A DNA stretch of 64,000 nt from an uncultured Pseudomonadota bacterium (GTDB lineage: Bacteria; Oederibacteriota; Muellerivitia; Muellerivitales; Muellerivitaceae). This document shows positions 3,468 through 18,315 of the stretch, piece by piece (the first letter of the stretch is position 1; every line of letters starts with the position of its first letter). The stretch is taken from positions 32,001 through 96,000 of the forward strand of contig CAWIIP010000002.1 of assembly GCA_963836235.1 (NCBI GenBank). Reading direction: 5' to 3'. Position numbers and translations under genes: made by a program. The notes below the pieces were generated by a model. The model saw nothing but the letters and a program-made list of their open reading frames with translations. It ran no database searches and was not told the origin of the DNA.

Positions 3468-3983
3468 TCAACCCATATGCTCCCGAAGCCATTGGATTTG
3501 CCCCGTATGATGCCGTCCGTGCCAGGCATAAATGCAAAGCGCCCGAGAAAGGGGAATAGTACGCCCATCCGGATGGATGAAGGTCCGGGTATATTGTTCA
3601 TCCGTCATTGATCGAAGAAGGCGAACCCATCTTTGATGGACGCCTTCCAGCAAGAGAAGCGATGGTTCTACCGAACCTGTTTTAGCCTCAGTTAAATCCG
3701 ACCAAAGGTTTTCGTCGTAAGCCTTGATCGTGGGCTTTTCCTCGGTCAAAGTCCATTTGAACCGGATATAACTGTGCACATGGCTGTCGGCAAGGTGGTT
3801 GACGATTTGCCGCATATTCCAGTTCTTATAAAGTGTTCCCATTTGCTCGTCGGATAATTCCGAGACCGCCTGCCGCATCAGGGAGGGGGCCCGCTCGATT
3901 TGCGCAATAAGTTCCTCCCTGCGCCGGGCATCGACATCTTCCCCGACTTGAACCGGACCAACTGGAAATTTGGGCGCTTCCAT
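3468..3983 (-). CDS. YfiT/BstA-like DinB-superfamily metal-dependent thiol transferase
   Basis: WNMRQIVNHLADSH, PTIKAYDENLW and YAWHGRHH metal-binding His motifs. Confidence 0.85.
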   Translation of the reverse strand: MEAPKFPVGPVQVGEDVDARRREELIAQIERAPSLMRQAVSELSDEQMGTLYKNWNMRQIVNHLADSHVHSYIRFKWTLTEEKPTIKAYDENLWSDLTEAKTGSVEPSLLLLEGVHQRWVRLLRSMTDEQYTRTFIHPDGRTIPLSRALCIYAWHGRHHTGQIQWLREHMG

Positions 3984-4006
3984 ACTTTTCCTTAATTTCA
4001 GAATGG

Positions 4007-4699
4007 CTAAACCTTGCAACTAGCCTCGGCGACTTGATTTTCAACCCGGCCTTTTGAACATGCCTCACATTGGCTATTTCTTTCGGGAATAATGGAGCGC
4101 ACTTCCCTTTTTTGGATATCCACCTTCCAAAGCCGGTAAGGCCCTTCTTTCCGCGCCAACCGCAGGGCCTCGTGGGCCTGAAGATAACCAATGGCTTGTG
4201 AAAAAGAGCCCAAGACCCCCGCTTCTTGGCAAGTGGGCATGGCAAAAGGAGGAGGGATTTTAGGAATAAGACATCGAAGGCAAGCCGTCACGCCCGGAAG
4301 AACAGGCAAAACCTGGCCCTCAAACTTTACGACCCCCGCGTGGACAAAGGGCTTTCCCAATTTCACGCACCAGTCATTCAGCAAAAACTTTTTTTCTAGC
4401 CGGTCCAAACCATCAATGACCAAATCATAGGGTTCCAGTATCTTTTCCGCGTTCGAGGAGCCAAAAGCTTCGGGCATAAGCAATGTTTTGGTTTGGGGAC
4501 ACTGCTTCTTTAGGTATTCCTCGGCGGTTTCCACTTTGGGGCGTCCCAAGTCCTTTTCGGAATAAAGGATCTGGCGGTGAAGATTCGATAGTTCCACCTT
4601 GTCCGGGTCCATTAGGCCCAGTGTTCCAACACCCGCCTCGGCCAATAAGATGGACGCAGGACAGCCCAATCCCCCCACACCCACAATTAATATTTTCAT
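4007..4699 (-). CDS. ThiF/MoeB/HesA family adenylyltransferase (E1-like), lacking the N-terminal helix
   Basis: VGVGGLG, DPDKVELSNLHRQ, GRPK, IDGLD, CLRC...CEAC zinc pairs, PTCQEAGVLG Cys loop; in-frame TGA 5 codons upstream fixes the start. Confidence 0.92.
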   Translation of the reverse strand: MKILIVGVGGLGCPASILLAEAGVGTLGLMDPDKVELSNLHRQILYSEKDLGRPKVETAEEYLKKQCPQTKTLLMPEAFGSSNAEKILEPYDLVIDGLDRLEKKFLLNDWCVKLGKPFVHAGVVKFEGQVLPVLPGVTACLRCLIPKIPPPFAMPTCQEAGVLGSFSQAIGYLQAHEALRLARKEGPYRLWKVDIQKREVRSIIPERNSQCEACSKGRVENQVAEASCKV

Positions 4700-4714
4700 T
4701 TTTTTACCGCACCC

Positions 4715-4909
4715 TCAAAAGAAGCCAAAAGCCAAAATGACGGCCCCCGATCCGATCAAGGAATAGCCAAGCGTGAGTAAAAGGAAATAATTCCAGGGGA
4801 TTCCGTTTTCTTTTTTGGCGTTGGCCGAGTAAATGGAAAACATGCCGGATAGTTGAAGCACAATAAATCCCAATATTCCCAAAGCCAACCCACCCATAAA
4901 ATAACCCAA
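4715..4909 (-). CDS. small two-TM membrane protein
   Basis: 64 aa, two hydrophobic helices, fills the gap between AKR and thiF, GAGGCGG upstream. Confidence 0.6.
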   Translation of the reverse strand: MGYFMGGLALGILGFIVLQLSGMFSIYSANAKKENGIPWNYFLLLTLGYSLIGSGAVILAFGFF

Positions 4910-4928
4910 TATTCACCGCCTCAGAATA

Positions 4929-5912
4929 TCAATAGGGGCCCCGAATATGGGCCGCTACTTCTGTTTGATAAAATTCTTTTAGCTTCCGGTGTAGTTCCCC
5001 GGAAAGAGGCGGCAAGTCGCTGGCTTTCGCGTTTTCAACCGCCTGTTCCGGGTTTTTGGCGCCGGGAATAATCGTGGTCACTGCGTCGAAATCCAGGCAC
5101 CAGCGGTTTGCCATTTGGCTCAAGCTCATTCCCGACGGTACCATGGATTTCAATTTATCCGCCAGTTCAACACCCTTCTCAAAAGGGAGGCCCGCGAAAG
5201 TCTCCCCGACATTAAAAGCCTGACCGTCCCGGTTATAAGTCCGGTGATCCTGGGGAGAGAACTTCGTGTCCTTCTTGTATTTTCCCGCTAAAAGCCCACT
5301 GGCGAGGGATAAACGGATGATGAGGGATACCTTTTTCGCCTTGGCTTTCTCAAAAAGAACATCGATAGGTTTTTGGCGGAAGAGATTGAAAATGATTTGG
5401 AGGGACGCCAAACATTCTTGTTCCATGCAAAAAAGGCCTTCCTCCATGGATTCCACGCTGGCGCCAAAATTTTTGATCTTGCCTTCTTTTTTCAAAAGCC
5501 TCAGCCACTCGAACACTTCCCCGCGCTTCAAAACATCGAAAGGCGCGCAATGGAGTTGGGTCAAATCCAATGCTTCTAGACCCAACCTTTGGAGCGAATT
5601 TTCGGTGTGCTGGCGGAAAGCGTCCCAAGTAAAATTTTGAGGCCATCCGGGCTTTGAAAAACGGATGAGCTTGGTGGCGATAAAGACCTTGGACTTGGAT
5701 TGCTTCAGGAACTTCCCGATGATGCTTTCACTGCGGCCCATCCCATAAACATCCGCCGTATCAAAAAAATGTACCCCGGCCTCGACCGAAGCTTGAAGGG
5801 TCTTTAAAGCCGTGTCTTCCGACACTTCGCCCCAATCTCCCCCAAATTGCCAGGTTCCGACACCTACTTCCGAAACCTTGCTTCCCGTATCAGCGAATAG
5901 CCTTTGTTTCAT
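4929..5912 (-). CDS. aldo/keto reductase
   Basis: GVGTWQFGG, FFDTADVYG, IATK, SLQRLG..LDLTQLH, IPGAKNPEQ. Confidence 0.93.
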   Translation of the reverse strand: MKQRLFADTGSKVSEVGVGTWQFGGDWGEVSEDTALKTLQASVEAGVHFFDTADVYGMGRSESIIGKFLKQSKSKVFIATKLIRFSKPGWPQNFTWDAFRQHTENSLQRLGLEALDLTQLHCAPFDVLKRGEVFEWLRLLKKEGKIKNFGASVESMEEGLFCMEQECLASLQIIFNLFRQKPIDVLFEKAKAKKVSLIIRLSLASGLLAGKYKKDTKFSPQDHRTYNRDGQAFNVGETFAGLPFEKGVELADKLKSMVPSGMSLSQMANRWCLDFDAVTTIIPGAKNPEQAVENAKASDLPPLSGELHRKLKEFYQTEVAAHIRGPY

Positions 5913-5954
5913 GTTGATAAGCCTTCTTCCATTCCCCTTCAAGGGAACAGCCTT

Positions 5955-7283
5955 TCATTGGTTTGCGGACCTGACCACTATAATTTTATTTAACTCCCGC
6001 CCATCCTTCGAGTAAATCGCGAAATAAGAGCCCAAGGGTACATCATGCCCTTGGTCATCTTTTCCATCCCACTCGACCCAGGCATCGGCTTGGGCCACGA
6101 CTTTCTTTTCGAACAAGTTCCGCAAGGGATGTAGCGCGCCATCAAAAACCTCCAACCGATAAATCCCTGGCCCATCGGCGAAACTGATGTAAATATTAGC
6201 AGGCGGTTCCCCGAAGACAATGGTTTCGGCCTGTTGGCCCGTTGCTTCCTGGGTAAAAGAAGAGGTCGGAGTGGGTAAAAAGAGGTTTTCTTGCACTGCG
6301 GGAGCATTGACCACAACGGGCTCGGCGACGTCCCTGGGCGCGAATTCAAATGTGGGCGTCGGCTTTGGCCTGGCTTTTTTCCGGCGCGTTGGGGGCTTGG
6401 GTATGGCTGGCCTTGGAAACACCGGTGTCGAAGTGACGATCGGCCAGCTGGGCGGCAACTGGGTCGGCAAGGGTGATGGCCGCCACTGCGGGACGACTTC
6501 GGGTATCTTTGTCGGAACCGGCATCGGAGCCAACCAGGACGAAACCGTCGCGGTCGGTAGGGGTTCCTCCCTTACCACCTTTCGGGCCAGTGGGACCGGA
6601 GCCATCTCGGCCACTGTTTGCGGAGCGCAATAAGGATTAGGCCCGATATCCAAATAAATCTTTCTACGGTAGAGATGTCTCTCTCCGGGATATTGAGACC
6701 TTGAGCTAGTACCCGTGGCCGAAAGAAATTGGGCCGCCAAATTTGTTTCGGGGTCGGTCAATAGGGCCAGATTCGGTATAGATGTTCCAGTGCTTTGCGC
6801 TTCGAGCCAGCCACTGTCGTCAAAAGCCAGCTTCCGCCAGCCCCGTGGCTCGGCCTCCATCCGGTTCGGGATATAGGCCGATCTATGGTCGGCCAGGTCG
6901 TTGCTGGAAAGGGTTAATTCCGCGCCATTCGAAAAACGAAGCCGAAGGATATAGGCAAGTCCAACCCGGTCGTCGACAGGTTGCGGAACCTTGTAGGCGT
7001 CCTGATTCTCTATGGCTAATATGTTTTCCCTTTGGAAATAACATAAGTGTTGGGGGGTACATATAATTTTTTGGAGTCCCGTGGAGTCGGGAGTTCTGCG
7101 GAGGCTATCCACGATTTGAATGTCGTTTAGCCAAATATCGGCCCAATCATCGACGGAAATATATATCGTGGCTCCGGTTAGGTATGGGCGCTGATCTTGC
7201 GAATAGGCCGGTAAGGCAAGGAATATCCCGACAAGTACCCGTGCAAATACGGCATAACTCCGAAGCTTTCTCATCCTCATCAA
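5955..7283 (-). CDS. exported protein: beta-sandwich N-domain, Pro/Thr linker, C-terminal FlgD-type Ig domain
   Basis: Signal peptide, SVDDWADIWLN..GWRKLAFDDSGW sugar-binding-like motif, C-terminal WDGKDDQGHDVPLGSYF. Confidence 0.7.
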   Translation of the reverse strand: MMRMRKLRSYAVFARVLVGIFLALPAYSQDQRPYLTGATIYISVDDWADIWLNDIQIVDSLRRTPDSTGLQKIICTPQHLCYFQRENILAIENQDAYKVPQPVDDRVGLAYILRLRFSNGAELTLSSNDLADHRSAYIPNRMEAEPRGWRKLAFDDSGWLEAQSTGTSIPNLALLTDPETNLAAQFLSATGTSSRSQYPGERHLYRRKIYLDIGPNPYCAPQTVAEMAPVPLARKVVREEPLPTATVSSWLAPMPVPTKIPEVVPQWRPSPLPTQLPPSWPIVTSTPVFPRPAIPKPPTRRKKARPKPTPTFEFAPRDVAEPVVVNAPAVQENLFLPTPTSSFTQEATGQQAETIVFGEPPANIYISFADGPGIYRLEVFDGALHPLRNLFEKKVVAQADAWVEWDGKDDQGHDVPLGSYFAIYSKDGRELNKIIVVRSANQ

Positions 7284-8221
7284 GTCAATTCATTGCGGTG
7301 TCTTTGGACGTAAAAAGCCACCTCTGCCCCGAATAAGATGACAGTCCAGGAAAGAAAAAACCAAATCAGGATCACCGGGACCATCCAGAGGGCTCCGTAA
7401 ACGTGGGAACGCTCCAACACTTTCAAGGTATACCAATTCATCGCCCATCGGGCCGTTTGCAAAAGGGCCGCCACCAGCAAGCCTGTCAAGATGGCGGATT
7501 TATGCTCCACTTCGGTATTGGGTATCCAGATATACATCCAAGCGCAGGCCGACCAAAGAAGGACAAAGGGTATCACCGTTGAGAAAAGCCAATGGTGGAC
7601 GGAAGGGTGGAGGATATTCCAACTTCCCACCCATCCTTTCAAGGTCAAAAGAAGAAGGGCCAATAGCGGCATTCCAACGAAAAAAGTGGCGTGACGAATC
7701 ATTTGGTCGATTACAGGCCTTCCTTTTTCAACGCCCCAAAGCAAATTGAAAGAATTTTCAACATCTCTCATCAGGAAAAACACAATGGCCAGGAAGCCCA
7801 TGAAGCCAATAATCCCGGCCTTTTGGGAATAGAGCGCGAATTTTTTGACTGACAGGCGGATCTGCTGCTTCCCCACCTGGTTCAATTCCTCGAGGTTTTT
7901 CGGTTCGTCGGGGTCCAGGAAGGAATTGGTGGTTTCGGTCTGGACGGGATAAATGGCGTCTACAATCTGGTCAAGAAGCTGTTCCCTCTTTTGGCTGAAG
8001 GCGTCGCTGGAGAGGACCGCCATGATAATGGCCAACGCCGGTACCAAGGCCAAGAGAGTCTGAAAGGCAAGCGACCTGGCGTAAAGGCGCTTGTGTCCTC
8101 GGGTGCGATCATTATTTTTCCGCAATACCTGCCCGGTGGCCCAAAGGACGGCTTTAAAGTCCCCCCATATACCCTTAGAGGGTTGTTGCCGAAGCCGGTG
8201 ATGTCCGTAAAAATGGGCCAA
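7280..8221 (-). CDS. YihY/virulence factor BrkB family membrane protein
   Basis: SLAFQTLLALVP, ENSFNLLWGV, VYGAL..PVILIWFFLSWTVILFGAEV. Confidence 0.9.
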   Translation of the reverse strand: MAHFYGHHRLRQQPSKGIWGDFKAVLWATGQVLRKNNDRTRGHKRLYARSLAFQTLLALVPALAIIMAVLSSDAFSQKREQLLDQIVDAIYPVQTETTNSFLDPDEPKNLEELNQVGKQQIRLSVKKFALYSQKAGIIGFMGFLAIVFFLMRDVENSFNLLWGVEKGRPVIDQMIRHATFFVGMPLLALLLLTLKGWVGSWNILHPSVHHWLFSTVIPFVLLWSACAWMYIWIPNTEVEHKSAILTGLLVAALLQTARWAMNWYTLKVLERSHVYGALWMVPVILIWFFLSWTVILFGAEVAFYVQRHRNELT

Positions 8222-8275
8222 AATCTCTCCCTAGAGATTAGAATATGGCCCATTGTAAGCAAAAAAAGGCGGTCC

Positions 8276-8920
8276 ATGAAGAATATCCCCCATCTCGATT
8301 CACGTCCTCCAAAGACCCTTCCTTTGCGTTATTCGACTCCGCCCAAATGGGCAGACCAAGTCCTGAAGGAACCCCTCGCCCTTCTTTCAGATCAAGCCTA
8401 CCTGGAAAAGAAGGCCGCCAATAATGCCTTGGAGTTCATGAACCTCTGGCCCACAGCCGAAGCCCCTCTCAATTGGCTTTCTTCGATTGCCACCATTGCT
8501 CAGGATGAAACCTCTCATTTAAGAATGGTTTTGAGACTCTTGGAAAAACGGGGCGGAAAGCTGGAACGATCCCACAAAAACCAATATGCCCTGGACTTGC
8601 GGCAATGCATCCGCAAAGGCAAGGGCCAGCAAGACTTGGCCGACCGCCTGCTGGTTTCGGCTTTGATCGAGGCACGATCTTGTGAAAGGTTTGAACGGCT
8701 AGTGGAGGCAGGAACCGACGCTGAATTGTCGAAGTTCTACGCAGGTTTAATCGAATCCGAAAACGGCCACTATCAGTTATTCGTGGATATGGCGAAGAAG
8801 GTCTTGCCCGCCAAGGAAGTTAAAAATCGTTGGGATAAGTTGCTGGATATCGAAGCCGAAATCATCCAGGCCCAACCACCCGGACATCGGATTCACAGCG
8901 GGGTTTCTGGAGCTTGGTAG
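8276..8920 (+). CDS. miaE: tRNA ms2i6A37 hydroxylase, MiaE-like diiron protein
   Basis: LEKKAA, DETSH, DRLLVSALIEARSCERF, SENGHY; start placed at MKNIPH. Confidence 0.88.
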   Translation: MKNIPHLDSRPPKTLPLRYSTPPKWADQVLKEPLALLSDQAYLEKKAANNALEFMNLWPTAEAPLNWLSSIATIAQDETSHLRMVLRLLEKRGGKLERSHKNQYALDLRQCIRKGKGQQDLADRLLVSALIEARSCERFERLVEAGTDAELSKFYAGLIESENGHYQLFVDMAKKVLPAKEVKNRWDKLLDIEAEIIQAQPPGHRIHSGVSGAW

Positions 8921-9059
8921 AATAATATACCAATATCAGATACTTACTTAGTTGATCCACATCAGAAATGGAAAAAGACAGGATAAAAATAATTAAAGAT
9001 GATTTCTTAAAAAGGACACTAAGCAGCTCAATCTAAAATTTAGAAAACCAAAGGCACTT

Positions 9060-10262
9060 ATGATTATCAGAAAAGTAATGTTATTGCTTACTGTTTACTT
9101 TTTTTCATCGCTTACATTCGCCGATAACAACGGCTTCAATTTCTTGAGCATTTCTAATAATCCATACACTTATGATGGCGGCACATTGGCTGTCACAATC
9201 AAGGTAAGCAGATTAAAAGAGGACTACGAAGGTTTAGACTTGAACCTAGAGTCTATTTTTGATTTCCAATATTTTGATGTGGTTTCGGATGATTCTTCTA
9301 GCTCCGTTCTAAAAATAGCAGCTCACAACTTTAAAATTCATTTCAACCTAAAAAATAATATAAAAATTATCCAAAACGGGAGCAACGATTCTTCACATTC
9401 AAAAGAAGTTAAATTCACATTTAAAATTCTCCCTCATGCTGGGTTTAGTTATTCGATCAATTGCACCGCAGCTTTATTGGGAAGCAACAAAAAAACCGAA
9501 ACCGTCATTTACGGTCCTTCTCGATTTTCCTTTTACAACCTCGATCCTTCTTTCAAAGGTTTTTTCGAAAAAGCTCTTGTAGATGCCCGTGAAGAAGTTT
9601 GGAACAATATTTTAAAAACCATGTGGTTAGATAAAAAAAACTTAAATCTGGCCTTTATTAAAGAAAACTATCCTCTCAAAAACTTCGATGTTCTTGTTGG
9701 GAACTTAAAAGGAAAGGGCAATGATCAACTCATACTTAACCTCGGTAGTTATTTAGGAATGGGTGGTTCCAAATACGGCGTTTTCGTTTTCGATTTTGAT
9801 AAAACCGGATATAAAAAAATATTTTCAAAACTCGGTTACGAAGTTTCCACACAGGTAATAACGTGGAGCGGTAAAACGGGCTTATTAGTTTGGGATAGTG
9901 AATATGACGGTAAAGATTCTAATGCCCAATTACTTTTATACAAAGATGGCCAAATTGTTCCGGTTCTCGATTACGCTTTTTCGAATTGTATTGTTCACGT
10001 TGGTTGTAGTTTCAGAACATTTCTTGACGACAGAAACAATAAGTTGTACTTGTACAAGATGAACGGCCAGAACGATGGGGATGGCCACATTGGTTGTTAT
10101 TCAATTAAAAAACAACCTCTTCTTTGGGACGAAAAAAATTTCAAATTTGATCCGGGCGCAGAAACAATCGTAAGTAAAGAGGATTTAGATTCGCTTAAGA
10201 AGTCCTATGCTAATTCAGCTAACGATTTGGCCTGGATAGAAATTTGTCCCAATGGCAAATGA
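9060..10262 (+). CDS. AT-rich orphan exported protein
   Basis: 400 aa ORF with signal peptide; visibly more AT-rich than flanks; no family recognised. Confidence 0.75.
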   Translation: MIIRKVMLLLTVYFFSSLTFADNNGFNFLSISNNPYTYDGGTLAVTIKVSRLKEDYEGLDLNLESIFDFQYFDVVSDDSSSSVLKIAAHNFKIHFNLKNNIKIIQNGSNDSSHSKEVKFTFKILPHAGFSYSINCTAALLGSNKKTETVIYGPSRFSFYNLDPSFKGFFEKALVDAREEVWNNILKTMWLDKKNLNLAFIKENYPLKNFDVLVGNLKGKGNDQLILNLGSYLGMGGSKYGVFVFDFDKTGYKKIFSKLGYEVSTQVITWSGKTGLLVWDSEYDGKDSNAQLLLYKDGQIVPVLDYAFSNCIVHVGCSFRTFLDDRNNKLYLYKMNGQNDGDGHIGCYSIKKQPLLWDEKNFKFDPGAETIVSKEDLDSLKKSYANSANDLAWIEICPNGK

Positions 10263-10318
10263 GGAAGTTATCTGTTTTTCCAAATGTAACCCGGATCACT
10301 TGCCAAAAAGACTGGCCC

Positions 10319-10951
10319 TCAGTGATAAGCTTTTTCCAAAGCGTTCACAAAAGTTTTCACATCCTGTGCGCCCGATATTACGAACTTGTCGTTAAAAACA
10401 AAAAATGGGACCCCATTGACACCAATATCATAGGCCTTTTCCTCCGCCCCTCTCACCTCTTCCTCAAATTCATTCCCTTTTAAAAGTTTCTCTACCTTGG
10501 CCTTGTCCAACCCAGCGGAAACAGCCACTTCCACCAGAGTCTTGGTATCCCCCAGGTCCCTACCCTCGGTGAAATAGGCCTTAAAGAAAGCGTTATGGGC
10601 CGCATTACCCTTCCCTTCCTTTTCCGCCAACCAAAGAATCCGGTGGGCGTTAAAGGTGTTGGGGGTTCTTTCAATATCATCAAACCGATAATCAATTCCC
10701 GATTCTTTGCCAAGAGCCGTCAACCGGGCATGGGCTTGGTCCAGCACATGGGTTCCCCCAAACTTTTCGGCCAGGTGCTTTTTGTGGTCCAATCCTTCGG
10801 CTGGAGTAGCCGGATTCAATTCATAGGGTAAAAAGTGGACTTCGGCCTCGGCTTTCTTCCCTGAAGCTTCCAAGGCCTCTTCCAGCCGCTTCTTCCCCAA
10901 ATAGCACCAGGGGCAAATCACATCTGAATAAACGTCGATCTTTAAGCTCAT
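10319..10951 (-). CDS. DsbA family oxidoreductase (FrnE-like)
   Basis: SDVICPWCYLG, PNTFNAHR, GVNGVPFF, SGAQ. Confidence 0.92.
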   Translation of the reverse strand: MSLKIDVYSDVICPWCYLGKKRLEEALEASGKKAEAEVHFLPYELNPATPAEGLDHKKHLAEKFGGTHVLDQAHARLTALGKESGIDYRFDDIERTPNTFNAHRILWLAEKEGKGNAAHNAFFKAYFTEGRDLGDTKTLVEVAVSAGLDKAKVEKLLKGNEFEEEVRGAEEKAYDIGVNGVPFFVFNDKFVISGAQDVKTFVNALEKAYH

Positions 10952-11044
10952 GGCTTTCTCCTTGCTTGACCCAAGATATGGTTTTTCCCTTGGGGAAATA
11001 AGCCCTTCTCTGATTTTTTGAGTTACCCCGGATATACTGGGGCC

Positions 11045-11449
11045 ATGAAAACATTAAAAATTCAAACCTCCGAGCGGGAACACATTCGGGATATTACTTC
11101 CCACATCCGTGAATGGGTGGCTAAAGGGGGTTACGAATCCGGTCTTTTGGCGGTCTATTGCCCCCATACCACCGCCGCCATAACCATCAATGAAAATGCC
11201 GATCCTGACGTGAAACGGGACATTCTATTTCACCTCAAAAAAACAATTCCTCAATCGCCGGAATTCAAGCATTTCGAGGATAACGCAGATGCCCATATCA
11301 AATCGGTTCTAATCGGATTCTCTTTGGCCCTTATCGTGGAAAAAGGAGAGATTTTACTGGGCCGCTGGCAGGGAATTTACTTTTGTGAGTTCGACGGACC
11401 GAAAGAGCGAGAAGTTTGGCTCAAGTTTATCGGCGGCAAAGACCCCTAA
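11045..11449 (+). CDS. yjbQ: YjbQ/UPF0047 family protein
   Basis: PHTTAAITINENADPDV, NADAHIKS, LGRWQGIYFCEFDGP. Confidence 0.92.
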   Translation: MKTLKIQTSEREHIRDITSHIREWVAKGGYESGLLAVYCPHTTAAITINENADPDVKRDILFHLKKTIPQSPEFKHFEDNADAHIKSVLIGFSLALIVEKGEILLGRWQGIYFCEFDGPKEREVWLKFIGGKDP

Positions 11450-12393
11450 CCGCCCTCTTTCTCGAATTCCTCTTCGAGACTGAAGTAGCGCTCGCCCATA
11501 TCACAGCAAATAGTTACGATTCGGGCTTCCGGGCCTAATGTCTTGGAAAGTTTCAAGGCCGCGGCCACATTGGCGCCGGAGGAAATCCCCAAAAGCAAGC
11601 CTTCTTCACGAGCCAAGCGCTTCGTCATTCGGTAGGCTTCCAAGTCTTCAATTTGAATGAGTTCATCTATTACTGACCGGTTCAAAACAGATGGTACAAA
11701 CCCGGCGCCGATGCCTTGGATGCGATGGACCCCCGCTTTTCCACCCGAAAGCACCGCCGAGGAAGCAGGCTCCACCCCGACGATTTTGATTTTCGGGTTC
11801 TTGGCCTTGAAATATTCCCCTACCCCGGTGATGGTCCCGCCGGTACCGATACCCGCCACGAAAGCGTCCAATTTTCCTTCGGTATCCTTTTCGATTTCCG
11901 GCGCCGTAGTCCTTTTGTGGGCTTCAGGGTTAGCCCGGTTGGCGAACTGTTCGGGCATAAAATATTCGGGATGCTGTTTCTTGATTTCCTGGGCCTTGCG
12001 GACCGCTTCCGCCATCAATCCCTTGGCCGGGGTTAAAACCAGTTCCGCCCCATAGGCCTTCAAAAGAACTCGCCGCTCCTGGCTCATATCCTCAGGCATC
12101 ACGAGAATCAGCTTATATCCTCTTTGAGCGCAAACCAGGGCCAAGCCGATTCCAGTATTGCCGCTGGTGGGTTCCACCAAGGTTCCACCGGGCTTCAATA
12201 AACCCCGGTGCTCCGCGTCGTCGATCATGGCCAGGGCGATACGGTCTTTCACACTACCGCCCGGATTATAAAATTCCAATTTGCAAAGGATTTGGGCCCG
12301 GCCCTTTTCCGGAATGGCTTGAAGTTTTAAAAGAGGCGTGTTTCCAATGATTTCGGTAATGTTGGAAGCCAGGGGATACCGGTTATAGGTCAT
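11446..12393 (-). CDS. cysK: cysteine synthase A
   Basis: IGNTPL, NPGGSVKDR (PLP Lys), EPTSGNTG, GIGTGGT, HRIQGIGAG, GISSGA; ATGA overlap with the upstream gene. Confidence 0.95.
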   Translation of the reverse strand: MTYNRYPLASNITEIIGNTPLLKLQAIPEKGRAQILCKLEFYNPGGSVKDRIALAMIDDAEHRGLLKPGGTLVEPTSGNTGIGLALVCAQRGYKLILVMPEDMSQERRVLLKAYGAELVLTPAKGLMAEAVRKAQEIKKQHPEYFMPEQFANRANPEAHKRTTAPEIEKDTEGKLDAFVAGIGTGGTITGVGEYFKAKNPKIKIVGVEPASSAVLSGGKAGVHRIQGIGAGFVPSVLNRSVIDELIQIEDLEAYRMTKRLAREEGLLLGISSGANVAAALKLSKTLGPEARIVTICCDMGERYFSLEEEFEKEGG

Positions 12394-13058
12394 GGAGTGA
12401 CGACCGCACCCTCTTCCAATAGCCGGGCGGGGCATTTATAAGTCGGCTGGACTTCATGATGATAAGACACGCCCGAATCCAAGGAAGTAATCCAAACCTT
12501 GCCTTCCAAAGGCGACTGCCCCTTCAATATCCATTGAAGGGCTTCGGAAGCGGCCATCGCCCCCATCAGGCGTTGCACGGATGGCTGTCCCTTCGTGAAA
12601 GCTTTTGGATTCATGATTTCAAAACATTCCAAACAAGGACATTGGCCGCCTTGATGGCGAATAGCCAAGAGAGCGAATCCGCTTCCGGCCGGCCAAGCAT
12701 ATAGGGCGGGTTTAGCTTGGTGTCTCAGCCAACGGCTCAGACGCCGTCGGGCTTCTTTATTCTCAGTGGAAACCACCGTAAGGGACGCATTTGGTAGATA
12801 CTCAAACTCCTCGGGCAGAACGTCCACTTGCAGGTTTGGAAATTGGGATGTCAGCGCAAAGGATTCGAAATTTCCATAAGAAAGGACAAAAAGTTTGGAG
12901 ATGCCTACCGAGGCCAAGGCGGTGGCGGCAGACTGGAGGGCAATGCCTTCTCCTACCAACAACACGGAAGATTCCAACCATTTTTTCTGGCCTTCCGGCC
13001 CAACCGAGGAAAGGATAACCTGCCGGGAAAACCGGTCTTGGCTATTCGATGTCGGCAT
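12390..13058 (-). CDS. degenerate ThiF/MoeB-like protein (inactive adenylation domain)
   Basis: RFSRQVILSSVGPEGQKK N-terminus and CPCLEC retained; GxGxxG degraded to VGEGIAL; NLxRQ motif and Cys loop absent. Confidence 0.8.
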   Translation of the reverse strand: MPTSNSQDRFSRQVILSSVGPEGQKKWLESSVLLVGEGIALQSAATALASVGISKLFVLSYGNFESFALTSQFPNLQVDVLPEEFEYLPNASLTVVSTENKEARRRLSRWLRHQAKPALYAWPAGSGFALLAIRHQGGQCPCLECFEIMNPKAFTKGQPSVQRLMGAMAASEALQWILKGQSPLEGKVWITSLDSGVSYHHEVQPTYKCPARLLEEGAVVTP

Positions 13059-13063
13059 CCAGC

Positions 13064-13309
13064 TTACTCGACGATATCTTTGACGATTGGATTGACGTCG
13101 ATACCCTGTTTGGTGAGATCGTCCAATGCTTTTTTGACTTCCGGCTCTTCGCCCTCGATTTCCATTTGAACATAGCCAAAGCCCTTGGTAATGGAGGCCC
13201 GGCGGATGTTCACCGTAATTCCATATTTTTTTATGGTATTGGAAAGAACCGGTTGGGTGACAAGCTCGGTAGGATAATCCAGTTCAACAAGTTTCTTGAT
13301 GGCCGCCAT
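13064..13309 (-). CDS. stand-alone NIL (ACT-like) domain protein
   Basis: LDYP..LVTQPVL...KYGITVNIRRASI..GFGYVQMEIEG pattern; 81 aa. Confidence 0.85.
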   Translation of the reverse strand: MAAIKKLVELDYPTELVTQPVLSNTIKKYGITVNIRRASITKGFGYVQMEIEGEEPEVKKALDDLTKQGIDVNPIVKDIVE

Positions 13310-13346: not shown

Positions 13347-13637
13347 TTAAGAATTCGGATGAATCCCACCGGCGATGGCTGGCACAATGGAAACTTGGTC
13401 ACCCGCCTTGACCATCGTGGCTTCCCCTTGCAGGAAACGGATGTCTTCTTCGTTGAGATAGATATTCACGAACCGGCGGATTTTTCCGTTTTCGTCGCAG
13501 AGGCGGTCTTTTAAACCGTTGTAGTTCTTTCCCAAATCGTTGATAAGGTCCGCAATCGTTGCGCCATCGGCGTTAACTTCAGCCTGGTTGTTGGTCAGAT
13601 TCCGTAAGGGAGTCGGGATCAATACTTTCGCTGCCAT
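13347..13637 (-). CDS. MoaD/ThiS/CysO-like ubiquitin-fold sulfur carrier with C-terminal extension
   Basis: IPTPLR, RRFVNIYLNEEDIRFLQG, IVPAIAGG followed by IHPNS; AGGAGG RBS. Confidence 0.92.
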   Translation of the reverse strand: MAAKVLIPTPLRNLTNNQAEVNADGATIADLINDLGKNYNGLKDRLCDENGKIRRFVNIYLNEEDIRFLQGEATMVKAGDQVSIVPAIAGGIHPNS

Positions 13638-13800: not shown

Positions 13801-15843
13801 TCACTTTTGAAGGGGAAATTCGGTCACTCTTAGCCGGGTCGACCCATAAGGAACCAAGGTCAGTTCTTCCATCGGAGCCGAACTCTCTACCGGACTTTGG
13901 GGTGGAGGTTCCGCCGCTCCTTGGACAAAAGACCAGGATTCCAACCGCCGTCCTTGGACCGACACTTTCACCGGGGCACCTTCCAAAGTAAAGGGATCAC
14001 CTTTGAGAACGCCATCTTGGAAAGTCAGGCTCTTTTCGGGTGATTGGGGATCGAGAACCAGGGCATAATTCCAGGGACTCCGGGGCAAAAGCATGTAATC
14101 GCTTTTGCCTCCTCCCTTCGGCTCAAATTGGAAAGGCCGGAACCCCTTCCATAATTCTTTAAGGCCCAAGCTGAAAACAAGGGGTCCCCGTTCAACGCTA
14201 ACGGCGTCCTGGTAACCCCGCCTCACCTTAAAGGCCATGGGTAAATTAAGCTGAAGGGTCTCGTTCCCACTCCACTCGCGAAGTACTTGATGAAAACTTC
14301 CGGATTTCAGGTTTTCTTTGGTTCCATCTGGCAAGGTCAATATGGCCCCTTCCGTCCATTCAGGCACCCGGAAATAAATTGGGAACTTAGCCGGTTGGGC
14401 GGTCGTCACCTTGAATGTTAGATTTTCATTGAAGGGATAATTCGTCACCAATTCCACGCTCACTGGAACACCGGAAACCATGGTCTCAACCCTTGAAGGC
14501 GCGTAAACCACCGCGGCCAATCCCCCGTCCGGAGTTCCCATCCAAAGATGCGAAACAAACTTGGGCCAGCCTTGGTGAAAATTGGCCGTACAACAGCCAA
14601 ACTGGGGTTCCAATCCAAATAAATTGGCGACCCCGCTATTCGTGGAGTAAACCGGATTGGGATCAAAAACACAGGCGATTTGGTTCGCCTGTTCCACATA
14701 TTGGTGGGTCCAATAGTCCGGGGCGATGGCCGCGGGCAGGGCGTTGAAGGCAATCTTTTCCAACCGGTCCGCGAGGGCAACGTCCCCCAGCACCGAAAGC
14801 GAGTTTTCAAGGGAAAACATGGTTTCAACGATGGCGCATAGTTCGGTGCCTTGCGAAGGGCTTTTGCCTGCCAGGCACTCGTCGCCACTGAAAAGGCCAT
14901 TGGCCTCACCATGGTAGCGGTCCAATTCTGGAAGCGCCTTGAGGGCTATTTTTTTGAACCGGTCATCCCCCGTCAACCTGTAAAGCATCGCGGGGGTTTT
15001 GATACCCATAGCGTTGTTCACCACATGTCCCGCCCAATTCCATTGTGGGGACTTCTCCTTGACGGGTAAGTCGGAAAAATGCTTGGGCCAGTTATATCCC
15101 TGGCTAGCCGCTTTATAAGCCAGGTCCAACAGCCAGCTCTCTTTTGTGCGGTCATAAAGCCAATAAAGGCTCACCAATAGGTCGCCCCAACGAAAAAAAT
15201 TCCAGGCGAATAGGGGCCGTGAATCTAATTGGGAATTCAAGGACCCCAGATCCTTGAGCATGGCCGGGATAATCCGCTTATCCCCCGTGGCTTCCTGGTA
15301 CTGGGCCAAACCCTTCAGGATAACGAACTGCGGCCAGGGGTCCCTTGCGGCATTTGGGGGACCCTTAGTGCCAAAAGGCCCCTTCCCCTGCTCCGGACCC
15401 AACCACCCGTCTGATTGCTGATGGGAAAGGATATAGTCGACCCAACGCTTGGCTTTGCCTTCAAGCCTTTCGTCGCCAGTAAGGAAGGCCAGGGGGATCA
15501 TGCCATCCAGCCAATAGGGCGCCCGCTCCCAGCCTTCGGCCTTTCCTCCTATCCACCCACTGTCTTTAATATCCGGCCAAAACTCGTCCAAATGGCCCGA
15601 CTGCCCGCCCGCTTGGAGTTTCAATTGGTCCAACAGCCAGCCTTCGGGTTTGACCGTTCCCAAGGGTAATGGCTGAAAAGCCAGCGGTTCCAAACCCAAA
15701 GGCCTGTTGGCGATCTTTTCCTGTTGATGGCGGTTATAAAGAACCCAAGTCAACAAGGCCAATCCCATGAAAATAAAAATCAAAAGTAGTCTCGTTAAGG
15801 AAAAAAAATTTTTGGGGGGTGCTGGGGGAATCAGTTCTTCCAT
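13801..15843 (-). CDS. membrane-anchored GH127-family (beta-L-arabinofuranosidase-like) glycosidase
   Basis: GWERAPYWLDG, HVVN, SGDE, TELCA, GCCTAN motifs; N-terminal TM helix; start placed at MEELIPP. Confidence 0.85.
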   Translation of the reverse strand: MEELIPPAPPKNFFSLTRLLLIFIFMGLALLTWVLYNRHQQEKIANRPLGLEPLAFQPLPLGTVKPEGWLLDQLKLQAGGQSGHLDEFWPDIKDSGWIGGKAEGWERAPYWLDGMIPLAFLTGDERLEGKAKRWVDYILSHQQSDGWLGPEQGKGPFGTKGPPNAARDPWPQFVILKGLAQYQEATGDKRIIPAMLKDLGSLNSQLDSRPLFAWNFFRWGDLLVSLYWLYDRTKESWLLDLAYKAASQGYNWPKHFSDLPVKEKSPQWNWAGHVVNNAMGIKTPAMLYRLTGDDRFKKIALKALPELDRYHGEANGLFSGDECLAGKSPSQGTELCAIVETMFSLENSLSVLGDVALADRLEKIAFNALPAAIAPDYWTHQYVEQANQIACVFDPNPVYSTNSGVANLFGLEPQFGCCTANFHQGWPKFVSHLWMGTPDGGLAAVVYAPSRVETMVSGVPVSVELVTNYPFNENLTFKVTTAQPAKFPIYFRVPEWTEGAILTLPDGTKENLKSGSFHQVLREWSGNETLQLNLPMAFKVRRGYQDAVSVERGPLVFSLGLKELWKGFRPFQFEPKGGGKSDYMLLPRSPWNYALVLDPQSPEKSLTFQDGVLKGDPFTLEGAPVKVSVQGRRLESWSFVQGAAEPPPQSPVESSAPMEELTLVPYGSTRLRVTEFPLQK

Positions 15844-15868
15844 GAGGTTCTCCTTGGAAGAGAATACA

Positions 15869-16624
15869 TCAGGAAGGCTTGGCCAACAGCCGAGAAAGTG
15901 GCCTCCAAACCTTATCATGCGGTAGTTTTTCTTGAAAATATTTCCTGTCGGACCAATAGACCTTGTAAACGCCGGCTTTGGGCTTGGAAATAGCAACCCG
16001 ATATTTCTCTCCCATCACTTCCAAAGCCGCGCAATTGTCGATGGCGATGGCCACACCGGGGGGTTTTAGCATCATTTCTTTGAGTTCGGGTCTACGGTCT
16101 TTTTCAACATCGTAATGGGGACAGGCTAAGGCATCGATCAATCCTAACCCAGTGACCTTAATGAGTTTAGCCTTGGGATTGTGGAACTTGCGGGAATCCG
16201 AGTTCCCCTGGCGGAACCAACAAATGGCCCCAGCGCTGGGCCCGCAAAGCACTTTCCCCTTTTTTTCGGCTTGTTTTAAGAGTCCCACAACCCCAAGCTT
16301 TTTCCAACGGTTGATCATCAAGAGGGTATTACCACCTCCGACATAAATAATGTCAGCAATCCTTATTTTTTTAGCGATTTCTGAATATTTCGGGGGTTGT
16401 TTCAGGAGAAAAAGCGAGTCCACCCGGCATCCCAATTTGTTTCCAAAATGATTTTGGACCGCTCGGACATAAGCTTTGTCGTCCGAACTGGCAGTAGGAA
16501 TAAAAAGAAGACGGGGGACCTTCTTGCCTGAAAGCCGGATGATTTCCCGGCTAATCGACATCACTTCAGGCTTGGCCGCGCCGAACCCGATGCTTCCCCC
16601 GCCAATGGCAACGATTTTCCGCAT
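15869..16624 (-). CDS. peptidase E (S51) family protein
   Basis: IVAIGGG, FIPTAS, IYVGGGNT, GPSAGAICWF, PHYD. Confidence 0.9.
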   Translation of the reverse strand: MRKIVAIGGGSIGFGAAKPEVMSISREIIRLSGKKVPRLLFIPTASSDDKAYVRAVQNHFGNKLGCRVDSLFLLKQPPKYSEIAKKIRIADIIYVGGGNTLLMINRWKKLGVVGLLKQAEKKGKVLCGPSAGAICWFRQGNSDSRKFHNPKAKLIKVTGLGLIDALACPHYDVEKDRRPELKEMMLKPPGVAIAIDNCAALEVMGEKYRVAISKPKAGVYKVYWSDRKYFQEKLPHDKVWRPLSRLLAKPS

Positions 16625-16631
16625 TGGCTTC

Positions 16632-17078
16632 TTAAGTCGGTGTGGATGGTTTTTTCGACTTGGGTAGGTACCGGTAACTCCAATAAGCCATCCAGCCTAA
16701 GGTGATGAGCGAGAGAAGAATGGCGATCATTGAGAGGACATCCGAAAATCTGCCCCGGGAAGCCCATGGGCTTCCGGCCCGAATTCGGGCGATGAACTTA
16801 CGCAGATCCGGGTTGTCCGGGTGCAAGCGAAGGCTTTCCTCCATAGCGACGAGCGCTTCAGTACGATTGGCCGACTGGTAATAAGCCTCCCCCAAAAACT
16901 GGTAGGCCTGCCAGTAATCGGGCCGCTGGTCCACTGCGGCGTGGAAATATTGGACGGCCTTGTCGTAATCGTGGTTTTTAAACAGATCCATGCCGGCGGC
17001 GTAATAGTCTTCCGGAGCGATCGCCCAAACCCACATTGGCACCAGGGCAAAGACCAAGATCAAAAAAACTTTCTTCAT
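16632..17078 (-). CDS. exported TPR protein with C-terminal TM anchor
   Basis: Signal peptide, two TPR-like repeats (PDYWQAYQFLGEAYY, LRLHPDN), C-terminal hydrophobic helix. Confidence 0.8.
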   Translation of the reverse strand: MKKVFLILVFALVPMWVWAIAPEDYYAAGMDLFKNHDYDKAVQYFHAAVDQRPDYWQAYQFLGEAYYQSANRTEALVAMEESLRLHPDNPDLRKFIARIRAGSPWASRGRFSDVLSMIAILLSLITLGWMAYWSYRYLPKSKKPSTPT

Positions 17079-17082
17079 TGTT

Positions 17083-18315
17083 TCAAGCCGGAACCAAATG
17101 CGTCGCCTCGAAAGCGGCTAGGTTGGGTTGGATGATATTCAATGCTTTCAAGTGATCCGTCACCGCCTCCTGGGTTTTCAACCCCGTCCCAGTGATATAG
17201 GCCACCGTAACCGCGTCCGGGTTCAAAGCGCCAGCCTCGGTCAGTTTTTTCAGACAGCCGATAGTAACTCCCCCTGCCGTTTCGGCGAATATTCCTTCGG
17301 TACGAGCCAAGAGTTTTATCCCTTCCACAATTTCCTCATCCGTCACCATTTCGGCTCCGCCGTTGGACTCCGCGATGGTTCTTAAAGCGTAGAACCCATC
17401 CGCCGGATTGCCGATGGCCAGGGATTTGGCGATAGTATTGGGCTTGACAGGTCGGAAAGTATCGGTCTTGGCTTTGTAGGCCGTCGTCACCGGCGAACAA
17501 CCCGTGGCTTGCGCCCCGAAAACCCTCATGTCTTTCTTCTCAATCAAGCCGACCTTGATGAACTCCTGCGTGCCTTTCCAAATCTTAGTCAACAGAGACC
17601 CCGAAGCCACCGGAACCACCACTTGGTCGGGCGCTTTCCATCCTAATTGCTCCGCCACCTCAAAAGCCAAGGTCTTGGATCCTTCGGCATAATAGGGTCG
17701 CATATTGATATTCACGAAGGCCCATTTGTATTTCCCGGCAATTTCGCTGCAAAGCCGGTTAACGTCGTCATAATTGCCGTTCACCCCGATTAAGTTCGGA
17801 TCATAAATAAGGGAAGCCGTGACCTTGCTGGATTCAAGATTTGAAGGAATGAAAACAAACCGTTTCATGCGGCCCCTGGCACCATAGGCCGAAACCGCGT
17901 TGGCCAGGTTGCCCGTGGAGGCGCAGGCTAATGTGTCAAAGCCCAGTTCCAAAGCTCTGGTAGAAGCAACGGCCACAACTCGGTCTTTGAAGGAATGGGT
18001 GGGATTGGCACAATCGTTTTTGATATAAAGATTGGAAAGTCCCAGCTCTTCGCCCAGTCGTTCAGCGCGAATAAGAGGGGTATAACCTTCCTCCAGGGTG
18101 TTATAACGATCCCCTTCGATCGGCAGAAACTCCCTGTAACGCCAAATGTTCAAGGCCCGTGAGGCGATCTTTTCCCGGGAAACATCCTTTTTAATTTTGT
18201 CGTAATCGTAAGCCGCTTCCAAGGGTCCGAAGCAAAACTCACAGACGTATTTGGCCACCTTTTCATACTCTTGGCCACACTCACGGCATTTCAGCGCTTT
18301 CACATAACTCATCAT
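17083..18315 (-). CDS. threonine synthase-like PLP enzyme (second paralog, SAM-riboswitch controlled; probable O-phosphohomoserine sulfhydrylase)
   Basis: N-terminal CxxC..CxxC, NPTHSFKDR, CASTGNLA, EGSKT, ETAGG; a separate thrC sits in the hom operon. Confidence 0.85.
   Translation of the reverse strand: MMSYVKALKCRECGQEYEKVAKYVCEFCFGPLEAAYDYDKIKKDVSREKIASRALNIWRYREFLPIEGDRYNTLEEGYTPLIRAERLGEELGLSNLYIKNDCANPTHSFKDRVVAVASTRALELGFDTLACASTGNLANAVSAYGARGRMKRFVFIPSNLESSKVTASLIYDPNLIGVNGNYDDVNRLCSEIAGKYKWAFVNINMRPYYAEGSKTLAFEVAEQLGWKAPDQVVVPVASGSLLTKIWKGTQEFIKVGLIEKKDMRVFGAQATGCSPVTTAYKAKTDTFRPVKPNTIAKSLAIGNPADGFYALRTIAESNGGAEMVTDEEIVEGIKLLARTEGIFAETAGGVTIGCLKKLTEAGALNPDAVTVAYITGTGLKTQEAVTDHLKALNIIQPNLAAFEATHLVPA

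Follow-up and report, generated by a model that had tools for sequence, protein, structure and literature searches.

The DNA analysed here, called the window, is a stretch of 64,000 nucleotides (nt) from contig CAWIIP010000002.1 (positions 32,001-96,000; assembly GCA_963836235.1, genome G000 in our set). On its minus strand are two genes, A and B, that encode proteins of the ThiF/MoeB adenylyltransferase type with complementary losses. A has the catalytic motifs and no N-terminal arginine-finger helix, and B has this helix and degenerate ATP-binding motifs. The same strand carries genes for a MoaD/ThiS-family sulfur carrier, a NIL-domain protein and two enzymes dependent on pyridoxal phosphate (PLP) (Table 1). 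We propose that A and B probably act together as one carrier-activating enzyme that resembles the adenylation core of the asymmetric E1 enzymes. Papers cited by PubMed Central number or preprint identifier are cited from excerpts of their texts.

A begins directly at the first Rossmann strand, as a sequence-only reading of the locus had claimed. The match to the Pfam ThiF profile runs from position 22 to 237 of 238 (E 9e-64), and the NCBIfam models for MoeB, ThiF and SAMP-E1 give good scores that stay below the full-length cut-offs, with matches that begin ~23-150 positions into the profile. In alignments to solved structures, residue 2 of A falls on residue 30 in E. coli ThiF, residue 33 in MoeB and residue 36 in Uba4. 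The motifs that follow are present and strongly conserved in an alignment of 108 close relatives. In the P-loop GVGGLG (residues 7-12), a feature of the Rossmann nucleotide-binding fold, G12 is invariant and G7, G9 and G10 are conserved in at least 90%. SNLHRQ (38-43), K55 and D96, aligned to Uba4, are invariant, and D31 and the crossover-loop cysteine C157 are invariant or at least 90% conserved. The Zn site consists of two CxxC pairs (C140xxC143 and C211xxC214), with three invariant cysteines and a fourth, C214, that is conserved in at least 90%. The Arg of SNLHRQ, K55 and D96 are the counterparts of R73, K86 and D130, named as the ATP- and Mg-contacting residues of MoeB (PMC12355090). No Pfam domain besides ThiF was found in A or B, and A has a short crossover loop only.

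The arginine-finger helix (MoeB R14, ThiF R11) is absent from A, to judge from the start of the Pfam match and from a stop located 6 codons upstream of the ATG. Since this in-frame TGA excludes an N-terminal extension, the short N-terminus is not a start-codon error, as had been argued earlier from the same codon. The TGA is also the stop of a 64-residue hydrophobic open reading frame (ORF; 4715-4909). The truncation is not confined to the window: in 28 of 28 A-type frames (G000, 26 members of its family and G043 from the sister family) just 5-37 unrelated residues lie between the preceding stop and the Rossmann strand. In contrast, the RYSRH...GQKK helix is retained in all three canonical paralogues inspected. 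By this comparison of sequences, the truncation of A is old. The DinB_2 gene (3468-4019) that overlaps the end of A was considered as a member of the system and rejected, as it is not conserved beside A in genomes G046 or G068.

B matches the Pfam ThiF profile significantly at positions 1-56 only (E 1e-10). Its invariant N-terminal helix reads R-x-x-R-Q (R9, S11, R12, Q13), and residues 8-65 are aligned to MoeB 10-67, so that R12 of B corresponds to R14 of MoeB. Among 92 aligned close relatives, R12, G23, G52, C142, C145, N150, K152, E172, H201 and C209 are invariant. There is a single CxxC (C142 and C145, the first pair of A) in addition to the invariant H201 and C209. The losses can be located in a profile-profile alignment of the two families (hhalign; probability 94.5%). 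The P-loop of B is GEGIAL (GEGxAL in the family) compared to GVGGLG in A, with the first two glycines kept and the third lost. A 23-residue deletion removes NLHRQ...K55, there is no Asp at the position of D96, and a 7-residue deletion takes out the crossover Cys. What the sequence-only reading observed in A and B is real, apart from a few small corrections.

Conservation along B, measured in a sliding window, is highest at residues 140-154 (CPCLECFEIMNPKAF, around the CxxC), second highest at the N-terminal helix (10-24) and lowest at residues 57-87, once the region of ATP binding. For B alone, an AlphaFold2 model based on the 92-sequence alignment has a mean predicted local distance difference test score of 90.4. 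Low confidence is seen at residues 1-20 only, which in a predicted structure fits a segment that is ordered only when it rests on a partner. The top Foldseek matches of the model are ThiF (1zud) and MoeB (1jw9), with E 1e-13, a TM score of 0.75 and 19-22% identity. According to the model, B has the ThiF/MoeB fold without intact ATP-binding motifs. Conserved as they are across ~100 relatives of each protein, these sequence features of A and B are not due to chance. The relatives, most of them encoded in metagenome-assembled genomes (MAGs), are currently labelled plain 'adenylyltransferase' or 'hypothetical protein'. In one of them (G067 contig C2; locus L008, 9685-10670), NIL and B are in one frame without a stop, and a frame change near the CxxC breaks B; the product is found in the database as P0085, carrying the NIL domain. 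The likely cause is an indel in the assembly, and not a real fusion or a pseudogene.

Table 1. Genes and signals of the A/B system in the window (positions counted from the first nucleotide of the window; aa, amino acids)
Feature	Position	Strand	Details
A: ThiF/MoeB-type adenylyltransferase without N-terminal arginine-finger helix	4007..4699	-	230 aa; Pfam ThiF PF00899
In-frame TGA upstream of the ATG of A	4717-4715	-	6th codon upstream, 5 codons between; sequence read
CysK/CysM-type PLP cysteine synthase	11446..12393 (listed ORF to 12435)	-	NCBIfam cysK TIGR01139, 446 bits, above cut-off
B: ThiF-fold protein with degenerate ATP motifs and N-terminal helix; proposed non-catalytic partner of A	12390..13058	-	222 aa
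NIL-domain protein	13064..13309	-	81 aa; Pfam NIL PF09383 E 2.6e-15; ends 5 nt upstream of B
MoaD/ThiS-family beta-grasp sulfur carrier	13347..13637 (listed ORF to 13712)	-	Pfam ThiS E 4.8e-18
ThrC-like PLP enzyme with N-terminal zinc ribbon; candidate MetM-type homocysteine synthase	17083..18315	-	Pfam PALP + NinF-type ribbon; NCBIfam threonine synthase models

That truncated and dead ThiF forms should occur together across genomes had been set beforehand as a test of the pairing, and they do so strongly in two distant lineages. The first is the lineage of the window itself, for which we used a set of 99 genomes from the phylum, including 30 other genomes of the window's family and the single genome of a sister family (G043). 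Full-length matches to B were found in 28 of the 30 and in G043. Twelve genomes of other families match B at residues 1-79 only, and these matches correspond to the helix of ordinary ThiFs. Orthologues of A, with open frames of 227-273 codons for amino acids, are present in 26 of the 30 (52-82% identity) and in G043 (47%). Both genes are found in 26 genomes of the family, neither in two (G051; G054, 80% complete), B only in two (G055, 63% complete; G058, a partial match at a contig edge) and A only in none, in counts that come from related genomes and are not independent trials. The two genes are on one contig in 18 of the 26 genomes that have both, at a distance of 0-21 kb. In G051 and G054, the carrier and NIL are missing as well and a canonical MoeZ-like gene is kept.

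The linkage is also seen in gene order. In G043, eight genes follow head to tail on one strand: those for the ThrC-like enzyme with its zinc ribbon, the ThiS-family carrier, NIL, B, CysK, A, a CysD-like protein of the PAPS-reductase fold, and CysN. The final base of B in G060 doubles as the first base of A. G046 and G068 have an unbroken order ThrC-like, carrier, NIL, B, CysK, with A 3-5 kb further downstream. The window has the same backbone with insertions. The gap from CysK to A is ~6.7 kb, and three inserted genes (13801-17078), for a GH127-like beta-L-arabinofuranosidase homologue, a peptidase S51 and a small TPR protein, split the ThrC-like gene from the carrier gene, the two being adjacent in G043, G046 and G068. 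NIL is directly upstream of the dead ThiF in these three genomes and at five loci of the second lineage described below. The full-length ThiFs nearest to A in the phylum's other families are located in ordinary carrier operons, either CysK-ThiF or ThiS-MetY-ThiF-DsrE-TusA-JAB, or in a third type in which ThiS-MetY-ThiF is followed by a fused JAB-sulfite reductase-TusA protein.

The second lineage was found by a profile search with the B alignment against 1.84 billion representative proteins, which returned 12 representatives at E <=1e-30 and then a gap. Below the gap are many proteins of 205-250 residues with a strongly conserved QIERYSRQIILPEVGGRGQ N-terminus. The 30 that were aligned have no P-loop, no NLxRQ and both CxxC pairs, and are invariant at Y10, S11, R12, G20, Q24, G52, G54, C145 and C148. 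Genomic retrieval with this alignment gave 80 loci, 12 of the dead type and 68 with ordinary ThiFs, the latter being used as a control because the helix itself was the search pattern. The dead-type loci are mostly from Candidatus Binatia MAGs. In 9 of the 12, a complete ThiF with GxGxxG and NLxRQ and without the helix is encoded 2-3.7 kb upstream on the same strand; one has a truncated-ThiF fragment at the locus edge, and two are cut by a contig end. A truncated ThiF is found at none of the 68 control loci. Genes for a carrier and CysK lie between the truncated and the dead ThiF genes in 10 of the 12 loci, together with ThrC-like and NIL genes in five of those, and sulfate-activation genes come after the module. 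A long canonical MoeZ-like gene is kept in all five second-lineage genomes tested.

Trees were calculated with a quick IQ-TREE procedure, with support from the Shimodaira-Hasegawa-like approximate likelihood ratio test (SH-aLRT) only; several long rows were flagged. One branch (SH-aLRT 98) sets apart the truncated forms from both lineages and another (SH-aLRT 95) the dead forms. In the first tree, the 40 canonical rows grouped together at 86. The full-length ThiF encoded downstream of CysK in other families of the phylum was considered as an orthologue of A and rejected, as the tree puts those proteins inside the canonical group. A single old origin of the A/B pair, spread vertically or by transfer, would be the simplest reading of these sequences.

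The two parts are also found joined by nature. The metagenomic proteins P0263 (460 residues) and P0326 (488 residues) consist of a truncated active ThiF, TusA, an R(F/Y)ARQVVLPEVGEAGQ helix and a dead P-loop with a short remnant. Both begin at the Rossmann strand, with the Pfam ThiF match starting at profile position 18-20. A search for loci related to P0263 in species-representative genomes gave canonical ThiFs only and no orthologue.

The carrier matches the NCBIfam models SAMP1 and MoaD_arch below their cut-offs. Its start is most likely Met26 (13637), because the orthologues align from about residue 24 on. The C-terminus, ...SIVPAIAGG, is followed by five extra residues, IHPNS (13347-13361). 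AIAGG with 1-7 further residues is found in 25 of 26 orthologous carrier frames, and even between close relatives there is free variation in how long these tails are and in what they read (K, R, C, F, IHPNS, SGENKDI and others). Second-lineage carriers mostly stop exactly at Gly-Gly. The 1-7 residues after Gly-Gly imply that a peptidase is needed. From its sequence and position, a stand-alone 136-residue Prok-JAB protein is a candidate for processing the C-terminal extension of the carrier; its gene adjoins a second PALP (CysM/CysK-like) gene outside the window (G000 contig C1, locus L079 1459-2790). A JAB gene beside a PALP gene is an arrangement known from mec and cysM of actinobacteria.

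The carrier had earlier been described as encoded next to B. It is part of the same tight minus-strand cluster, with the NIL gene placed between the two. The NIL domain is the methionine-binding regulatory domain of MetN. The likely ATG of CysK at 12393 overlaps the TGA of B as ATGA. The families of the candidate carrier-dependent PLP synthases, CysM-type and ThrC-like, are both present and linked to the carrier; the enzymes may use a thiocarboxylate or free sulfide. Steps of the MetM/MetO pathway are described in 10.1101/2024.10.14.618325 (GapMind 2026 preprint), which cites Hasebe et al. 2024.

The genome of the window has four ThiF-family genes: A, B, a canonical MoeZ-like enzyme of 386 residues with a rhodanese domain, encoded elsewhere on contig C2, and a Cap2-like E1-E2 protein. 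The last of these (464 residues; G000 contig C4 ~203000-205100, locus L080, 42-2025; PADLOC E1-E2, E 6e-32) is encoded outside the window and is followed by a JAB (Cap3-like) gene and then by one for an SRAP peptidase. The arrangement resembles part of a defence locus of the type of the cyclic oligonucleotide-based antiphage signalling system (CBASS), unrelated to the sulfur module. Two further features of the window may be recorded. A minus-strand ORF of 447 codons (1090-2433) encodes a signal-like N-terminus, a Trp/Tyr-rich block (WWWYDSWGARWCYWWGNEWYW) and long stretches of low complexity rich in Gly, Ser and Asn, and the G+C content falls from ~0.50 to ~0.42-0.44 at ~38000-64000, remaining low through the window end.

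Our explanation of the module starts from the architecture of the known enzymes. The two monomers of the ThiF homodimer share in one active site, to which one gives its N-terminus and the other its C-terminus (PMC12596934), and ThiF R11 and MoeB R14 are arginine fingers from the neighbouring subunit (PMC13139853). An A:A homodimer would be without the arginine helix and an A:B dimer would have exactly one complete site, like SAE1/SAE2, BilD and yeast Tcd1/Tcd2 (PMC12355090; PMC10557695; PMC13139853), which argues for A:B as a heteromeric activator. A and B would then be two subunits of one carrier-activating E1-like adenylyltransferase, in which B is a ThiF-fold pseudoenzyme that replaces the second protomer of the usual homodimer and gives in trans the helix with R12 that A has lost. 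From the invariance of R12, the co-occurrence of the genes and the natural fusion we infer a physical A:B dimer with R12 in the ATP site of A. The activated carrier would be converted to a thiocarboxylate, to be used by the neighbouring CysK/CysM-type enzyme in making cysteine and by the zinc-ribbon ThrC-like (MetM-like) enzyme in making homocysteine, and the residues past Gly-Gly would be cut off by a JAB peptidase encoded elsewhere in the genome. As to a possible sulfur donor, A has kept the crossover Cys, and P0263 and P0326 have a TusA part. The NIL protein could be a ligand-sensing regulator, which is a guess. Overall, we consider it probable that A:B is the activator of the operon's carrier for thiocarboxylate-dependent cysteine and homocysteine synthesis, feeding one step of the CysM type and one of the MetM type. 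Co-occurrence, operon linkage, overlapping stop and start codons, and natural fusion give good support to the functional link of A and B to the MoaD-like carrier that was put forward in the sequence-only reading.

A number of observations weigh against this explanation and have to be set beside its rivals. MoeB, ThiF and Tcd1 are reported not to require the arginine finger, and TcdA has none (PMC13139853). For this reason the pairing is unproven as an obligate one; A might work without B, and B may be more of a structural or regulatory partner than an arginine donor. That A can outlive the module is hinted at by G052 (93% complete). In this genome, A (71% identity) and a diverged B (34%) are on separate contigs (C60 and C45; loci L075 and L076) beside transposase and integrase genes, and queries with the window's proteins detected neither carrier nor NIL. 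A break-up of the module may be under way in this genus; G051, the sister species, has lost all of it. Of the 10 complete second-lineage modules, 5 have no NIL, which is therefore not one of the core components. Long-branch attraction could have contributed to the clade of dead forms, given the quick tree method and four flagged long rows. Longer fused relatives of B were searched for with the B alignment and none were found, which is weak evidence. Taken furthest, the dispensability of the finger would make A alone a homodimeric adenylyltransferase that needs no arginine finger, with B as a non-catalytic adaptor or regulator that docks, e.g., the carrier, CysK or NIL and does not complete the site of A. 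Such a role is in line with the retention of every catalytic motif in A, with the position of NIL, where present, always directly upstream of B, and with the greater conservation in B of the CxxC region than of the N-terminal helix. We nevertheless regard it as unlikely, as it leaves unexplained why the R12 helix is kept without an ATP site of its own in three contexts (B, the Binatia-type form and the fusions) and why truncated forms occur with dead forms only and at none of the canonical loci. In addition, A is without the whole ~30-residue helix that shares in the active site of the ThiF dimer (PMC12596934), and not merely without one arginine.

A has no rhodanese domain, which also speaks against the A:B activator, and the canonical MoeZ-like enzyme does have one. 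It could then be that A and B act separately, B pairing with or modulating the MoeZ-like enzyme as the real activator of the carrier and A serving another substrate. A full-length MoeZ-like gene is indeed available in the window's genome and in all five second-lineage genomes tested, and in most genomes of the window's family A is several kb from the carrier operon. Yet in none of the examined loci is the MoeZ-like gene linked to the module, A is part of the operon in all 10 complete second-lineage modules as well as in G043 and G060, and G051 and G054 are without A, B, carrier and NIL together and still keep the MoeZ-like gene, all of which makes this division of labour highly improbable. Finally, the complementary losses could be artefacts of annotation or assembly, with the start of A called wrongly and B a pseudogene in decay. 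The interruption of B in G067 and the large share of MAGs among the relatives could be taken in this sense, but the explanation is already contradicted, and its likelihood negligible, in view of the stop upstream of A, the shortness of every A-type frame, and a B that is an intact ORF with invariant residues in ~90 relatives and has a confidently predicted fold.

The fold of A and B is that of the E. coli pairs MoeB-MoaD and ThiF-ThiS (1jw9 and 1zud), the carrier is likewise a beta-grasp protein with a Gly-Gly tail, and A keeps the ATP-, Mg- and Zn-site motifs and the crossover-loop Cys of these enzymes. MoeB and ThiF are homodimers of identical complete protomers, and bacterial enzymes of their type are described as having two complete sites (PMC12355090; PMC10557695), whereas here the helix and the catalytic core are on two gene products. 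In its metabolic setting, the module is similar to CysO/CysM/Mec/MoeZ of M. tuberculosis, MetO/MetM/Mec/MoeZ of Streptomyces and HcyS/HcyF/HcyD/MetY of Wolinella, which likewise combine a carrier with a CysK/M-type and/or a ThrC-like PLP enzyme; the JAB peptidase has its counterpart in the G000 genome. The CysO-, MetO- and HcyS-type pathways rely on a single full-length ThiF or MoeZ, in many cases with a rhodanese domain. Other families of the window's phylum have HcyS-type operons, in which the ThiF is full-length. The difference is that the operon-encoded activator is here the A + B pair, accompanied by a NIL protein.

Pairs of an active and an inactive subunit, in which the latter gives the N-terminal arginine, are known from SAE1/SAE2, NAE1(APPBP1)/UBA3 and yeast Tcd1/Tcd2 (PMC12355090; PMC13139853); in the yeast pair, the inactive subunit Tcd1 provides Arg59 (PMC13139853). 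A and B are likewise two paralogous adenylation-fold modules, of which one is catalytically competent by sequence and fold. Unlike in these enzymes, the active subunit A is physically without the helix. The eukaryotic E1s also have Cys domains, a ubiquitin-fold domain (UFD) and hand-over to an E2, and Tcd acts on tRNA, whereas the A/B system is bacterial and metabolic. Neither a catalytic-Cys domain nor a UFD was found in A or B, and no E2-like family was found among the window genes scanned. The parallel with eukaryotic heterodimeric E1s that had been drawn from the sequence therefore holds for the adenylation core and not for the rest, as A/B is like the core of the asymmetric E1s and is not a canonical conjugating E1.

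Within bacteria, the E1-like proteins known at the time were stated to homodimerise in a preprint on the Bil antiviral system (PMC10557695). BilD itself is a bacterial asymmetric pseudo-dimer with a single active site, in which the inactive adenylation domain (IAD) supplies Arg9 (PMC10557695). It is a single polypeptide of IAD and active adenylation domain (AAD), carries a CYS domain, and works with an E2 in protein conjugation and phage defence, whereas A and B are two genes in sulfur-carrier metabolism. The asymmetric active/inactive core has in this way been described for eukaryotic E1s and, in one chain, for antiviral BilD (PMC12355090; PMC10557695). A search of the literature outside subscription journals did not find a truncated/dead ThiF pair of this kind described. 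Such a pair is likewise unmentioned in the excerpts of a 2006 survey of prokaryotic ubiquitin-like systems, of two 2025 reviews (PMC12355090; PMC12596934) and of the Bil preprint (PMC10557695).

With the pair present in two or more bacterial lineages, there is reason to suspect that bacteria have a two-subunit form of the asymmetric E1 enzymes known elsewhere from eukaryotes. A more far-reaching possibility, which we put forward tentatively, is that A/B is an ancient bacterial two-gene asymmetric E1, in which the split between catalytic and arginine-donating subunits arose within sulfur-carrier metabolism independently of conjugation machinery. It might be maintained across distant phyla as a module of four to six genes (A, carrier, CysK and B, with or without ThrC-like and NIL), with B and NIL forming a ligand-controlled switch by which the supply of sulfur amino acids acts on carrier activation. 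If the explanation is correct, a metabolic two-gene asymmetric E1 would show that asymmetry can evolve and persist without E2s, and would offer a simple, separable system for studying the role of the N-terminal arginine helix. It would also represent an undescribed variant of thiocarboxylate-dependent cysteine and homocysteine synthesis in poorly known lineages, FCPU426-like bacteria and Candidatus Binatia.

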